The translations under genes were made by a program, and so were the position numbers. A DNA stretch of 62,983 bases, filler included, from Reclinomonas americana ATCC 50394 (taxonomy: Eukaryota): assembly GCA_048213135.1 (NCBI GenBank). It is 7 parts of 2 records of this genome, joined end to end, with 100 filler letters (N's around TTAATTAATTAA, not from the genome) between each part and the next. Parts side by side here need not be neighbours in the genome. Positions count along the whole stretch, not along the records: positions 1 to 14,968 come from PS015028.1; positions 15,069 to 31,689 come from PS015028.1; positions 31,790 to 34,599 come from PS015028.1; positions 34,700 to 41,422 come from PS015028.1; positions 41,523 to 53,153 come from PS015028.1; positions 53,254 to 61,498 come from PS015028.1; 1 more part is not named here. One strand, 5' to 3'. Below are positions 1-61,387 of the stretch, piece after piece; positions within the stretch are counted from its first letter, which is position 1; every line of letters starts with the position of its first letter. The notes beneath the pieces were generated by a model. The model searched no databases, was not told the DNA's origin, and saw nothing but the letters and a program-made list of their open reading frames with translations.

Positions 1-23
1 GCAGCCAGCGGCAGAAACGCAAC

Positions 24-1659
24 GACTGAGATTGAACGCCTGCTGGTATGTTCGCACCGGAGTCCCGCTGTCGGTCACTTGAATAGTGACGGCCATGGTT
101 CCACTCGATCCCGAGTTCTTCACATACAGACTCGTGCCGATGATGGTCAGCAGCGATGCGCCGGAGCCACCCACAATGGCGTACGTGTACGACTGGCCAA
201 CGTCAATATCGGTGGCGGTGAGAGCACCCACCAAAGAGTTCGCCGACGGCGTTGGTGCTTGATACCACGGTGCGTTGGGGTACGTGATGTTGGTTGGCGC
301 GTTGTTGACCGTGATGGTAAAAGGCTTGGAGTACAGGCCTCCTTTGCCATCGTTTGTCGTGATGGTGACTGAGCAGAGCGGAGAGAGGGAAAGAGAGAGA
401 GAGAGAGAGAGAGAGCAACGTTACATCGTGAACACACAAAGATTCGAGAGAGAGCAGGTGCAATGCTTATGAAACTTGACAGCGACGTCGTCAGGCCCGC
501 AGTCGCAAAAGACAATGTACTGCCACTGCAATGGAGAAGGGTATAAGGTCTCAGGCAGGCAGGGCGGCAGCGGAGGATGGGCACGCACGAGATGCTGACG
601 TTTGAAGCATTGACGCCGGTGACCGTGTACGTGAAAAAGATATCGATGGGATCCACATCCGTCGTCGACAAGGTGCCAATGACGAGACCCGCGGTGGAGG
701 GTCCCGCATACGCAGAGTTACTCAGCGTGATGTTACTCGGCGGACTGTTGGTGGCGGGTCCACAACACACAACGCCGCCAGGGGAAAACGCGCCGTTCCG
801 CGCACCATTGGCACTCTGCTGTGAGTAATCCAGACGCCCCAGATTTGCGCCGTAGCAGCTGGTTGTCGTAGCACCACGTCCACTGGAACAGCCACACGTA
901 AGCAACACCTTCTCTCTTGTACGGCGCAAGGAGACACACACGCGCGTGCACGCAACTTGCACTGTTGGCCAATACCCTGCACATCATTTGAGTTCCCGTC
1001 AGCGGCCGCAAAATCGAGCGGTTTACAGGTGCTGTTATCGCCGGCCGCCCGGTAGGCGTAGCAACCGGGAACCGTGACAGCAATGGCATAGGTGACAGCG
1101 CTGAGCGCGCCGCTTGGCGCCTGATCGGTGGATAGACACACGTGATACCCGGAGGCACACAAATTTGTGGCCGACACATCGAGAATCGTCGTCCACGTTC
1201 CCGTGCACGTTCCCACAGCGTAGGTGGCATTGGCCCAGTAGTTGGTCGGCTGACTGCCGCTGCTACACACTGCGCAGTGTGAACACAGAGGGAGAGAGGA
1301 AGAAAGAGAGGAAGAGAGAGAGAGGGAAATGCACGGGAAAATGGAGTATTGATAATCACATATCGATGTGTGAGTGAGAGTGGGTGACTGTGTGTGTGAG
1401 CGCGCACGCGCACACGGCAGTCAAAGACAACGCAACTCGGCGGCACCACGGCGTCGACAAAGGCGACAGGCGAACGCAACACACACGAGACAAGCACCAA
1501 AGCGGTGGTGATGAAAACCACTCGAATGCGCTGTCTGATTTCCTCTCTCCGCGCGCGCTCTCGCCGTCGCCCTCGTTGTTGGGCGACACACATTAATATG
1601 TCACCAGCAATGTCCTCGGCCAGCACGAGGGGCGGGCACTCGGTGCCAGTGCGTGACAT
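24..1659 (-). CDS. N-terminal exons of a secreted protein: signal peptide, Cys-rich domain and two cadherin-like repeats; probably the misoriented 5' end of the giant gene at 2057-27859
   Basis: First exon has a basic stretch, a hydrophobic segment (VVFITTALVLVSCVL) and a VDA|VVPP cleavage-like site, with donor at 1436. Exon 1269-957 is Cys-rich (CSSGSQPTNYWANAT...CASGYHVC). Later exons encode NSPPSNITLS...IGTLSTTDVD...FTYTV and NNAPTNITY...VGALTATDIDVGQSYTYAIVGG...QVTDSG. The last exon ends in phase 1 at 24. The start codon could be 1659 or 1593. Confidence 0.75.
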
Positions 1660-2056
1660 GGTCCGCTCCCACAGAAGAAGACAATCAATAAATGTCGATG
1701 GATGGATAGGTGCCGACTAGACACACTCTCTCTGCGGTGATGGTGAACACACGAGAGAAAGAGAGGAGAAAGTGAGGAGGGAGAGAGGGAGGGGGGTGCG
1801 CTTGGGTTTGCGTCACGCGGAGTGAGTGCGCGAGATTTACGGTCGCGGGCGACGGGTCTACACAACAATCAAGTTCTTTTCGGCGCGACAACTCTCTAGT
1901 GAAGCAACACATTCACGATACGTGAGCAACATACGCGTGACACAATCGATGTGCTTGTACCGTGGTACATTGCATGCACATGAGCNNNNNNNNNNNNNNN
2001 NNNNNGTTCACTCTCCTTTGCTTGCTTGCGTCTTCCTCACCCTGTGGTGATTGTAG

Positions 2057-57900: not shown

Positions 57901-59966
57901 GCCAGCAGCTACGTGCAGGTGGTGCAGCCGCACCCGCTGAAGAAGAAGACGAAGAAGAAGATGCGACCGAGTGGGGTGTTGGTGCTCGGGCGCAAGTCGC
58001 GGAGAGAAAAGAGTGCGGTGAAGGTTTGTGCGATGGAGGGATAGGGATGTGGGAGAAGGAGAGAGAGAGAGAGCAAGGGATCAAGAAAGTGCACGTCGTC
58101 AGGTATACTTTGTCTGTTTGCTTGTTGGTGTGGATTGGTATTAGCTCACTTGGCTGTTGGTCTCCTTCTCTCCTCTGCATGATGTAATTGATGATGTTCT
58201 TGCGACAGTTGTAGCACTCTTCTTCTGTCACTTAAAGTCTCTCTGGTCAGTGTCTGCACTTCGCTCACTCATCTTTTCTCTGGAGAGGCACTCCCCTTGT
58301 TCTCTGTTGTCCCAGAGAGCATGCCTGTAAAGGCAGCTCGCTGTGCGTCAATGTGCACTCTTGTTAATCGTTTCAGATCATCTTGTCCACGCGTCTCTCT
58401 CTCTCTCTCTCTCCCTCCCATCTCACCCTCCCCTTCTACCAATCTTCGCAGACCCCCTCTCCAACCGTCGGTCACCGCGAGCTCCCCTGGCCGCGTATCG
58501 GCCACGCGGCCGTGGTGATTGGCGAGGGTCTGTTGGTGTTTGGCGGCATGGATGTCAAGCAACAACGCACGTGCTGCGATTGGTGGTTCTTGTGTCTAGG
58601 TGAGTCGTGGTTGTTGTGTGTGCTTGCGGTTTTGTTGCCTCGATTATTCTCACTTGGGGCTACTTGCAGACCAAGCATGTGGCCCGAATGGCCAGTCGGG
58701 CTCCGACACGTTTTCGTCCACGCTCTTTCGCGTGCCGATGTTGGTGGCCGGGGCTGCCGGCGTGGCACCCATGTTTCCGGGCTTTCGGCACTCGGATTCC
58801 TACAGCACGCTGCAGCTGGACACGGGTGAGTTGGGGAAGCACATGGGAATCGCGGCACGAGATGCTGACATTTGTGGGTGCAGCGACGAGTGACGGCGCA
58901 GCCGACCACGGGGGACGGGGATCCAAGGCGCAATCGTCGGGGAGCATGTCGGGTGATGAATCGGCGGTGCGTGTGGGGAGGGTGAAGGGAGGGAGAATGG
59001 AGAGGGAAGAGGGAAGGGAGAAGGGAAGGGAAGAAGGAAGAGGGAGAGGGGGAGGGGGAGGGAAGGCTAAGGGAGAAAGGCCAGGGAGAAGTAGAGGGAA
59101 AGGGAGGAAGAGGAAGACGGAGAGAAAGAGGGAGGGAGAGGCGGGAGAGGGAGAGGGATAGGAAGAGGGAATAGGGAAGTGGGAAGAGGGAGAATGGACA
59201 GGGGGAGGGAGAGTGAGGGGGCGGCAGAAGAGAAGATAAGGGAAAGGAAAGAGGGAGAAGGAGAGTTTAAACAGATAAAAGGAAATGACTGTACGGAGCA
59301 GGTCTCTCTCTTCTTCGTGTGTCTCTCTCCCTCTGTGTGTGCATCTCTCTCTCTCCCTGTCTCCCTGCTTTGTCTCTTGCTATTCTGCTCTCTGTTTTGT
59401 TTTTCTTGCTGTCTTTCTTCCTATCAATCTCTGTCTGCTCACCTGCCTCTATGCCATTTGCTTTTTCTCTCTCCTTGTCTCTTCTGCTCTCTGTTTGTTG
59501 CTCTCGCTGTTTTTCCCTCTCTGTCTGCTCTTGTGCCTGTATTCTTTGCCATCTGCTTTCTCTCTCTCCCGATCTCTTCTACTCTTTCTCCTGTCTCTGC
59601 TGCTCTCTGCTTTGTTTTCTTCTTCCTCTCCCTCTCTGCTCGCCTGCCTGTATTCTTGCCATCTGCTCTCTCTCCCAGTCTCTACTGCTCTCCAGATCTG
59701 TTTTTCTTGCTGTCCTTCTTCCTCACTCTCTCTGTCTGCTCTTCTGCCTGTATTCGGCTCTGAATGTTTCCCTCTTTTCTGTTCTCTCCGTTGTTCCTCA
59801 TCACCGCGTGTTCTCGCAGAGTCGCGGGATGGCGGAGTATGGAACTCTGGACGACGTAGACGTAAGAATGGCCATCAATTCGGAGCCCACAGAGAGCACT
59901 GGATTGCTGCCGCACGAGCGATTGAGTATGTGGTGTCGACATCGCACGTGCTGCACGGTGCTTTAA
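54789..59966 (+). CDS. Kelch-repeat beta-propeller protein with acidic N-terminus and C-terminal CaaX
   Basis: Kelch motifs VLVFGGKY, WPAARAFHGS...LFISGG...DDLWSFN, LYEHTMV...LIVYGG, PLPRCRHSA...MVVFGG, EMHTALL...MVVLGG and PWPRIGHAAVV...LLVFGG. The last exon (~59820-59966) ends WCRHRTCCTVL*. The first exon assignment is tentative. Confidence 0.8.
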
Positions 59967-60550
59967 TGAAACGAGGCACACTGTTTTGCGACATGGAGGA
60001 GGCGAGGATTGATTGCAGGTATTGAGGAATCTATCAAGGGCCTGTGCCAACTCCCATCTCATTGGCACTTTCACGGCATCGACGAGGTGATACGTTCGTG
60101 AGCGACATGAACCGTGGCGTCACTTGGTCAGTCTCGCTGGCGAGCGAGACTAAATGAAGAGTCCCTGCGTCTCCGCAAGTGCGGAGAAGGGCTGAGAACT
60201 TGAGTGTTCGCTGACCCCTCTGCTCACCGATAATAGAGTACGGGATTGAATCGCTTGTACGACTATCCGTCATCTCCACCGCATACACGACTTGATTCGC
60301 TGAGCAGCTAGTGTGGGTCGGAGGCACAATGGCGTTGGCGCGAGGCTCAATGCACAGATATGATTCGCCAAGCAGCTAATCAGAGGCACATTGACTCGAT
60401 GAACGGTGCCGCGCCAGTCCATACAATCACATCCATGCCTGCTAACCCCGCAAAGAGACAGCAACTTTTTTGGTCTCTCTCATTGTACTACGTTCACGTG
60501 CGAGCACGCACACACGCGCACATACATACACCCAACGACAGAAACAGGCC

Positions 60551-61387
60551 TCACAACACAAACTGATAGAACAAGAAGACAATCACCAGCAGTACGCCGA
60601 TAATGATGACCCACTTTTGGTATTGCGCCAAGCGGTTCAACATGGTGGCCCCCTGCTTGAATGAGTTTGATTCTTCACGCAGCAGGCTCGACATTTTCGC
60701 CACATCTGCGACAAAACGGGTGAGCGGCATGCGCTCCTCGAAAGCAAGAGAGCGTGCACACGCAACTCTCCAGTTTGTCCCCTCGGCCGAGGACCTCCTG
60801 GATGTTGCGCTTCATAATCACTTGCACGTCGGTGAGGTCGGAGTTGACTCGATCGAGCTCCCGTTGTGTGCGTGTGTCGATGAAGAGCTTCTTGGTCTTG
60901 GACATGAAGCTCTCTGTCGAAGGGGTGGAAGGGGGAGAAGAGGGAAGGAGTGAGAGGAGGGAAAGGGGAGGAGAGGGGAGGGAAAGGGGAGGAGAGGGAA
61001 GAAAGAGAGGAGAGAGAACAGAAGTAGACATGCTGCTCACTTCAGACTCTAGTAGCCCCACACCACGCACCAAATTTCTGGAAATTGTACACATGTCGCG
61101 CCGTGTGTACTTGCCGACCGTGCAGCTGATCAAACTCTTTTTGTAGTTCGCCCAGGTACGCAAAGGCGAGTCTGACGGGGTAGTCGTGGTCGCACAGGGT
61201 GAGGTAGATGACCTCGTCAGTGACCAGAACGCTGCGCGAGGCAGGAGGTGTGGGTGGCGGGGAAGCGAGAACGGGGGGGAACAGGGGACATACGCAACTG
61301 AAACTGCAGCGGTTGGCCGCCGCCCTCGGCGGGTTCTGTGGTCACAGTCATCTTGTCGCCCTGCAGCCGGCCTTGCATTTTCCTCAC
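60551..61387 (-). CDS. SEC22: Longin R-SNARE Sec22 (5' end lost in gap)
   Basis: YLTLCDHDYPVRLAFAYLGELQKEF; FMSKTKKLFIDTRTQRELDRVNSDLTDVQVIMKRNIQEVLGRGDKLE (NIE-like segment, zero-layer Arg); C-terminal TM WVIIIGVLLVIVFLFYQFVL*. Confidence 0.9.

Follow-up and report, generated by a model that had tools for sequence, protein, structure and literature searches.

A predicted GTTGCG class of 5′ splice site following exons that do not end in G in Reclinomonas americana

In a stretch of 62,983 bases from the genome of the eukaryote Reclinomonas americana ATCC 50394 (assembly GCA_048213135.1), about one-fifth of the introns begin with GTTGCG, usually followed by T, and nearly all of them follow exons whose last base is not G. 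This stretch (hereafter, the window) has about 50% G+C, contains 5,901 N in 25 runs, is rich in short introns, and includes, on the plus strand between about 2 and 27 kb, a very long array of repeats with a weak likeness to cadherins. Judged from reading frames, gene prediction and homologous proteins, introns of this genome have, beside the more numerous GTNNG starts, a genuine second kind of U2-type GT-AG start, GTTGCG(T). The best explanation for it, to which we assign a probability of about 0.5, would be that one recognising RNA, an altered U1, reads the same GCGT block in two placements one base apart by using a shifted register. Here, the last exon base is numbered −1, the first intron base +1, and a slash marks the exon–intron border of a donor (5′ splice site).

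GTTGCG introns and the last exon base

A sequence-only reading of the window had listed 25 introns that begin with GTTGCG, the last exon base being A in 13, T in 7, C in 4 and G in one. The hexamer is present at all 25 coordinates on the strand given, and a recount of the last exon bases gave identical numbers; the base at +7 is T in 19, C in 5 and A in one. GTTGCG is not enriched in the window overall (60 copies, compared with 48.9 ± 7.1 in shuffled sequence, 7 of 100 shuffles reaching 60), despite which it is enriched at intron starts. To avoid circular reasoning, introns were predicted by a dynamic-programming gene finder in which the donor was restricted to a bare GT, and which used generic amino-acid frequencies together with synonymous codon use trained on the window, an acceptor matrix, a branch score and intron composition. 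Without a donor matrix, this finder placed 100 introns, 18 of which start with GTTGCG, and all 18 are among the 25 claimed (binomial tail 1.1e-19, GTTGCG being 60 of the 7,932 hexamers that start with GT). A single donor matrix, which was dominated by G/GTNNG, gave GTTGCG in 17 of 104 introns; a two-class donor model gave it in 22 of 108, all of them claimed, and also found the cut donor at 23. No hexamer occurs at donors more often than GTTGCG; of all its copies, counted on both strands, 35% act as donors in the curated set described below.

Three claimed donors were not recovered as complete introns by any version of the finder: 26989 (where a gene end was chosen instead), 34535 (which has an N gap inside the intron and is pinned by homology) and 23 (at the window edge). 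From their sequence, 25741, 26989 and 23 are plausible GTTGCG donors. Four likely GTTGCG donors had not been claimed, at 20310, 53645 and 50319 on the minus strand and at 52878 on the plus strand. Early versions of the finder were discarded, as their self-trained codon models drifted toward the composition of the array or toward low-complexity sequence; a score of intron signals alone (acceptor, branch and composition) failed to separate donors from nearby GT sites and is not used as evidence.

Conserved proteins had been said to pin several of these junctions, and for five of them the claimed position is exact: 34535 and 35045 in a UBE2G-type E2, 39879 in another E2, 44067 in IFT56/TTC26 and 60766 in SEC22. 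In the pin test, all donor–acceptor pairs within ±18 nucleotides (nt) that keep the frame were scored against a homologue profile without regard to their dinucleotides. The pair 34535–34704 was the unique top of 146 (profile of 80 homologues), and 39879–39800 was the unique top of 222 (110.2 against 104.5 bits); at the latter, an intron placed one base off would bring in a TAG stop. The pairs 35045–35895 (top of 451) and 44067–44007 (top of 437, profile of 50 homologues) were each tied with a one-base slide, which at 44067 was the only tie and gives the same mRNA, and each was the sole GT-AG pair in its range. Pfam coordinates continue without a gap across 39879 (UQ_con 56, then 57 as a split Y, then 58), across 34535 (UQ_con 41, then 42 as a split codon, then 43) and across 60766 (Synaptobrevin 34 at the exon end, one split codon, then 38 on the third residue of the following exon). 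Thus, at the pinned junctions the predicted introns start with GT and end with AG, and their removal would restore a conserved reading frame, as for U2-type GT-AG introns.

The claimed pin at 39703 holds in part: the intron restores DQ/WSPAL, which we take to be a conserved E2 motif, but there is a rival pair of equal length (GT39710–AG39648), which is judged less likely on account of both its donor and its acceptor, the latter having A at −3 and a branch about 9 nt away. The UBE2G profile is unsuitable for this junction (intron retention obtained a higher score), because the UBE2G family has a loop insertion exactly there. The intron, 39641–39703 on the minus strand, is 63 nt long, in frame and without stops, and its retention would add 21 residues just before WSPAL.

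In other respects the two donor classes are alike. Median intron length is 69.5 nt for GTTGCG and 67 nt for GTNNG introns, a CTVAY branch motif lies within the last 50 nt in 17 of 21 and 53 of 66, respectively, and an RCAG acceptor and a similar composition are common to both. Acceptors in the window have R at −4 and C at −3 instead of a long pyrimidine tract. The U12-type consensus is RTATCCTT for the donor and TCCTTAAC for the branch. That the GTTGCG introns are U12-type, or a family of mobile introns (introners), is hardly credible: they do have a seven-base start in common, and the first 14 bases are identical in the introns at 1436 and 39879, but an all-against-all BLAST of the N-free GTTGCG introns gave only low-complexity matches of 12–15 bases, and therefore they are not introners; moreover, their lengths, branch motif and acceptor are those of the main class, their donors read GTTGCG, unlike the U12 consensus, and 2 of 87 introns, counting both classes, have a string resembling TCCTTRA. 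It is also very improbable that the pattern results from chance, from an artefact of gene modelling or from junctions placed one base off. Such an origin would suit the lack of enrichment across the window, the three unconfirmed sites (23, 25741 and 26989) and the slide at 44067 that leaves the mRNA unchanged; it does not suit a finder that picked 18 of the claimed sites without a donor model (tail 1e-19), nor junctions at 34535, 35045, 39879 and 44067 that scored highest among 146 to 451 alternatives with no dinucleotide rule, nor the stop codon that results from the slide at 39879.

The dependence on the last exon base was determined in a curated set of 94 introns, consisting of the 104 introns from the single-matrix finder, minus 14 longer than 200 nt (including the claimed intron at 56945) and 2 contradicted by paralogy, plus 6 supported by homology or paralogy (Table 1).

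Table 1. Last exon base (−1) before curated donors, by donor class
Donor	A	C	G	T	Total
GTNNG	2	4	59	1	66
GTTGCG	12	3	1	5	21
Other	2	0	5	0	7

Within the window, the link between GTTGCG and the −1 base is strong in this set (G at −1 in 1 of 21 GTTGCG compared with 59 of 66 GTNNG donors, Fisher p = 7e-13), outside the array (1 of 14 compared with 14 of 17, p = 3.9e-5), and in the unbiased set from the GT-only finder (86 introns of at most 200 nt; 1 of 16 compared with 45 of 70 other donors, p = 3e-5). Seen from the exon, GTTGCG follows 20 of the 29 curated exons that do not end in G (a further 5 are followed by GTGCGT) and only 1 of the 65 that do; of these 65, 59 are followed by GTNNG, in agreement with the earlier statement that donors after exonic G are mostly of that type. 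The seven GTNNG donors found after a base other than G are five GTGCGT, one GTGAGT and one GTTGGGT. The array had been proposed as an internal control, which stands apart from one coordinate: of its 45 inter-domain introns, 42 come after an exon-final G and start with GTNNG (39) or another donor (3), never with GTTGCG, while exons not ending in G are followed by GTTGCG at 12682 and 24102 and by GTGCGT at 23318; the GTTTCG donor is at 24544, not 24545. A is at −1 in 13 of the 25 claimed donors compared with 7 of the 35 other copies of GTTGCG (p = 0.013). Throughout the window, the +5 base of donors is G or C, A and T being nearly absent. The rule seems to be that an exon ending in G needs only GTNNG, whereas an exon ending in another base needs a GCGT block, which mostly begins at +4 (GTTGCGT) and less often at +3 (GTGCGT).

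A one-base offset and pairing with U1

The sequence GTTGCGT is that of the strong donor GTGCGT with one extra base, and T at +7 in 15 of 21 GTTGCG donors mirrors T at +6 in 42 of 66 GTNNG donors. Enrichment of A at −1 is predicted by a +1 shift, because A−1 G+1 imitates A−2 G−1; a simple bulge does not predict it. The standard U1 5′ end (ACUUAC) was used to model pairing, with pseudouridine taken as U. Its median nearest-neighbour energy is about −1.2 kcal/mol for GTTGCG donors, compared with −6.55 for GTNNG donors and −2.1 for 1500 random GT sites, and the separation score (area under the curve, AUC) for the GTTGCG class is 0.27; GTGCGT after C is equally weak (−1.4 kcal/mol). The invariant C at +5 does not pair with standard U1 in any register, and G at +4 is unpaired with ACUUAC too. 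Pairing in the canonical register is poor, as it is for shifted-register sites, but with standard U1 (AUACUUACCUG) a shifted fold was obtained at only 2 of 25 sites, the median being −1.1 kcal/mol; bulged (+2/+3) duplexes were predicted at none, and G is at −1 in 1 of 25. Of the earlier proposal that GTTGCG is a GTGCG donor shifted by one base, the sequence side is borne out by T at +7 and A at −1, whereas a shifted or bulged duplex with standard U1 is unstable. Thus, of that proposal it is the variant U1 or U6 that is needed to fit the data.

Each of the 16 possible sequences at U1 positions 5 and 6 was scanned for separation of donors from background. The best has G at position 5 (ACGUAC; AUC 0.856 overall and 0.755 for the GTTGCG class), and ACGCAC reaches 0.79 for the GTTGCG class. 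With these hypothetical U1 sequences, duplexes at GTTGCG donors would have −5.5 kcal/mol (ACGUAC) or −7.5 kcal/mol (ACGCAC), G+6 would pair with U1 C4 in 24 or 25 of 25 sites, and, given G at position 5, the shifted register would be adopted in 15 or 16 of 25 sites, including all 13 that have A at −1.

In the reading that we prefer, the same recognising RNA would read GCGT at +3 and at +4. In GTTGCGT, the intron G+1 would take the place of the absent exonic G−1, and the UGCGU block would pair one base out of register, that is, with a +1 shift or, equivalently, with one bulged U. The U1 of this organism would have G, and perhaps C too, opposite intron +4 and +3 (ACGUAC or ACGCAC), because C+5 and G+4 cannot pair with the standard ACUUAC. 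A bolder form is offered tentatively, and we would not bet on it at even odds: shifted reading of the 5′ splice site may be routine here, in one-fifth of introns and two-fifths of those outside the array, with one small nuclear RNA (snRNA; ACGYAC) reading two motifs and the last exon base deciding between them. Such routine shifted reading would be possible because the U1 5′ end had changed to pair with GCG.

Several points weigh against an altered, register-shifting U1. The basis is 63 kb of genomic sequence, within which no U1 or U6 gene was found. The energy test is partly circular, because a class defined by GCG is bound to be favoured by whichever U1 complements GCG, and its outcome is a prediction rather than a finding. 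G is also rare before the 35 unclaimed copies of GTTGCG (3 of 35), and therefore the contrast at −1 owes most to how strongly GTNNG donors require G there; the introns of the array are paralogues, so their counts are not independent. Were the class no more than a shifted version of GTNNG, other GTTNNG forms would be expected, and those seen are only one GTTTCG and one GTTGGG. U6 would also need to tolerate a bulge adjoining the catalytic centre. Finally, a standard U1 is given for the Mamiellales (GYGCGY donors) and Thecamonas trahens (C at +4) in the part of 10.1101/2022.06.08.495308 available to us, and so a preference for GCG does not by itself imply an altered U1.

Two other ways of reading the motif have to be weighed. 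Standard U1 (AUACUUAC) may be the only form, the motif being read mainly by U6 or U5 at a later step, or by U1C or LUC7-type proteins that favour intron-side strength. The strictness of the six-base reading would go beyond that of any protein of which we know, and the ACAGAGA of U6 pairs with GUUGCG only with one U bulged, which is again a one-base offset; yet in the Mamiellales and Thecamonas trahens C at +4 goes together with a standard U1 (10.1101/2022.06.08.495308, as above), and LUC7 proteins are reported, in the accessible text of PMC11842720, to define two classes of 5′ splice site in animals and plants. On balance we regard this as unlikely. The remaining alternative is a second, dedicated U1 with ACGCAAC, complementary to GUUGCGU in the normal register, working beside a standard U1 for the GTNNG introns. 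A dedicated reader would fit a motif that is very tight (21 GTTGCG, compared with 1 GTTTCG and 1 GTTGGG) and cannot pair with standard U1, and Physarum is mentioned in 10.1101/2022.06.08.495308, though with no data shown there, as having U1 candidates both standard and modified; but it leaves unexplained why GTGCGT rather than GTAAGT is chosen after bases other than G and why A is preferred at −1, and the 63-kb window has no snRNA gene. We consider it rather improbable.

Sites and genes in the window

The GTTGCG introns, together with unclaimed candidates and two related donors, are given in Table 2.

Table 2. GTTGCG introns and related sites in the window
Feature	Positions	Strand	Evidence and remarks
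GTTGCG intron after C	12682–12748	plus	array inter-domain position; GT-only finder; homologous to G/GTNNG array introns
GTTGCG intron after T	16623–16699	plus	two-class finder; an in-phase GT 18 nt upstream was preferred by the GT-only finder; exon end paralogous to those at 17067 and 19053
GTTGCG intron after T	17067–17155	plus	two-class finder; paralogy with 16623 and 19053
GTTGCG intron after C	17974–18043	plus	GT-only finder
GTTGCG intron after T	19053–19125	plus	GT-only finder
GTTGCG intron after A	24102–24249	plus	array inter-domain position; exon end GCGAAA compared with usual GCGAAG; GT-only finder; acceptor less certain (148 nt)
GTTGCG intron after T	24858–24918	plus	GT-only finder
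plausible GTTGCG intron after A	25741–25817	plus	two-class finder only; GT-only finder ended gene at stop 25748–25750; acceptor GCGCAG
plausible GTTGCG intron after T	26989–27049	plus	unchosen, gene end at 27009 instead; 61 nt; acceptor CTCGCAG would join two open frames
GTTGCG intron after A, UBE2G-type E2	34535–34704	plus	N linker inside; UQ_con and junction profile
GTTGCG intron after A, UBE2G-type E2	35045–35895	plus	851 nt, CT-rich; junction profile
GTTGCG intron after T, Kelch-repeat gene	56945–57367	plus	423 nt; GT-only and two-class finders
GTTGCG donor after C	1–23	minus	cut at window edge; sequence only, and partial donor in two-class finder
GTTGCG intron after A	883–956	minus	GT-only finder
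GTTGCG intron after A	1270–1436	minus	GT-only finder
GTTGCG intron after A, Rad9-like gene	36215–36282	minus	GT-only finder; Rad9 Pfam match on first exon only
GTTGCG intron after A, Rad9-like gene	37150–37209	minus	GT-only finder
sole GTTGCG intron after G, Rad9-like gene	37836–37905	minus	GT-only finder
GTTGCG intron after A, E2	39641–39703	minus	DQ/WSPAL motif restored
GTTGCG intron after A, E2	39800–39879	minus	UQ_con and junction profile
GTTGCG intron after T, IFT56/TTC26	44007–44067	minus	junction profile
GTTGCG intron after C, PAS-domain gene	50968–51036	minus	GT-only finder; PAS match on upstream exon
GTTGCG intron after A, PAS-domain gene	51774–51838	minus	GT-only finder; PAS_9 profile begins at downstream exon start
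GTTGCG intron after A, SEC22	60706–60766	minus	Synaptobrevin profile continuity
GTTGCG intron after A, SEC22	61232–61298	minus	GT-only finder; Longin profile begins (position 27) on first residue of downstream exon
unclaimed candidate GTTGCG intron after T	20240–20310	minus	minus-strand copy of array repeat, exon end CAACGACT
unclaimed candidate GTTGCG intron after C	53566–53645	minus	see text
unclaimed candidate GTTGCG intron after T	50247–50319	minus	see text
related donor A/GTTTCG	24544–24632	plus	array inter-domain position; GT-only and single-matrix finders
related donor A/GTTGGGT, NEK-like kinase at HR/D motif	42083–42156	plus	Pkinase position 122 on both sides; GT-only and single-matrix finders

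The plus-strand introns at 35045 and 56945 are far above the usual 60–90 nt and have a CT-rich, low-complexity filling. The Kelch_4 profile ends at position 36 of 49 at the exon end before 56945, the remainder of the repeat being supplied by the next exon. On the minus strand, 51914–51982 contains GTTGCG within a predicted exon of the PAS/membrane gene and, 69 nt on, a branch-like GCTGACA and GGCAG; it could be an in-frame optional intron.

Besides the array, the genes recognised are those of the UBE2G-type E2, the Rad9-like protein, the second E2, the NEK-like kinase, IFT56/TTC26, two PAS-domain proteins, the Kelch-repeat protein and SEC22. Pfam matches in the array are Big_9 and Cadherin, under curated cut-offs, and a cadherin-like exon matched only distant homologues, mainly bacterial cadherin-repeat proteins; Pfam on the whole open frames of 1–51362 gave few matches. 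The protein closest to IFT56 is 80% identical on one exon and 73.7% for the spliced protein. A near-identical transcript-derived protein was not found for that exon (best identity 80%), and the top IFT56 match among metagenome contigs was again 80%, and therefore these searches gave no close relative in which orthologous introns could be compared. A search for SEC22 homologues gave zero matches, and the 63-kb window gave no snRNA or tRNA gene and no Rfam match. IFT56/TTC26 is interrupted by an 871-nt intron (44700–45570, minus strand) with a 20-N gap inside, and its first ~113 profile positions are located upstream, in or beyond the 735-N gap at 46765–47499. On the plus strand, 29056–29542 is an open frame without introns, of ~160 residues and with zero Pfam matches, which may be a fragment of a mobile element (an impression only).

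Six spacers of 100 bases each (14969–15068, 31690–31789, 34600–34699, 41423–41522, 53154–53253 and 61499–61598) consist of 44 N, TTAATTAATTAA and another 44 N; they are artificial linkers with stops in all frames that join contigs, and therefore the order and orientation of the adjoining pieces are not guaranteed. Two pieces between N gaps, 8768–9717 and 20216–22503, have the cadherin-like repeat and inter-domain introns on the minus strand, opposite to the remaining array; the scaffold probably contains them as duplicated or wrongly oriented contigs. The intron at 8992–8926 (minus strand) and that at 7857–7923 (plus strand) have their displayed ends in common.

Comparison with known 5′ splice sites

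Roca and Krainer reportedly described shifted-register (+1) 5′ splice sites in mammals in 2009, and Roca et al. are said to have described a bulge +2/+3 register of human 5′ splice sites in 2012. Few known RNA sequences are as conserved as the U1 5′ end, and to our knowledge non-canonical U1 registers are known only as rare mammalian exceptions. The term “the shifted register” is used in Tan et al. 2016 (PMC4856993), in the accessible part of which a test oligonucleotide has −6.5 kcal/mol and a table gives only 68 bulge +2/+3 sites predicted in the whole human genome. As in mammalian shifted sites, the exon of a GTTGCG intron ends in a base other than G before GUU, the canonical register is weak, intron G+1 stands in for G−1, and the downstream block is one base off; human shifted sites, however, are rare and pair well with standard U1, whereas here they would be 21 of 94 introns, with a GCG block and about −1 kcal/mol. 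Like bulge +2/+3 sites, GU(U)GCGU is readable as GUGCGU if one U is bulged out, and this reading would serve U6 too. Unlike them, GTTGCG donors show no preference for G at −1 (1 of 25), although a bulge leaves U1 C9 free and would therefore predict one.

Co-evolution of U1 and donor has been described, in the accessible part of 10.1101/2022.06.08.495308, for Entamoeba (ACAAAC with GUUUGU) and Mastigamoeba (ACGUAC with GUGCGC). In Mastigamoeba, C at +4 of the donor is matched by a G in U1, which is the change predicted here; both of those organisms have one donor class, whereas the window has two, one base apart. The Mamiellales have strict GTGCG(T/C) donors (Irimia and Roy 2008, PMC2483917) and thus resemble the window in the GCG core of a strong donor; they differ in having a single class in an intron-poor genome, with a standard U1 reported, and no GTTGCG class is described in the accessible text on them. 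The left- and right-handed classes linked to LUC7 (PMC11842720) are likewise two, and differ in the strength of exon-side compared with intron-side pairing, but in the text available they are gradations of one consensus in one register, unlike the distinct motif with C at +5 found here. Among the main texts of open-access papers and bioRxiv preprints, a search gave nothing relevant on a donor motif GTTGCG or GUUGCG; the matches were primers and other unconnected uses.

Should the GTTGCG class be borne out across the genome and in RNA, it would be a new form of non-canonical 5′ splice-site recognition. Recognition of splice sites probably works differently in this genome, and it is plausible that reading with a one-base offset needs a non-standard recognising RNA or another factor. 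For annotation, gene finders with a single donor matrix will mis-model at least one-fifth of introns here. If the proposed reading is true, Reclinomonas americana would offer a natural setting in which to ask three things: by what means U1, U6 and the site of cleavage remain aligned; to what extent the 5′ end of U1 is free to drift in concert with its targets; and in what way splice signals are shaped by coding constraints on the final base of the exon.

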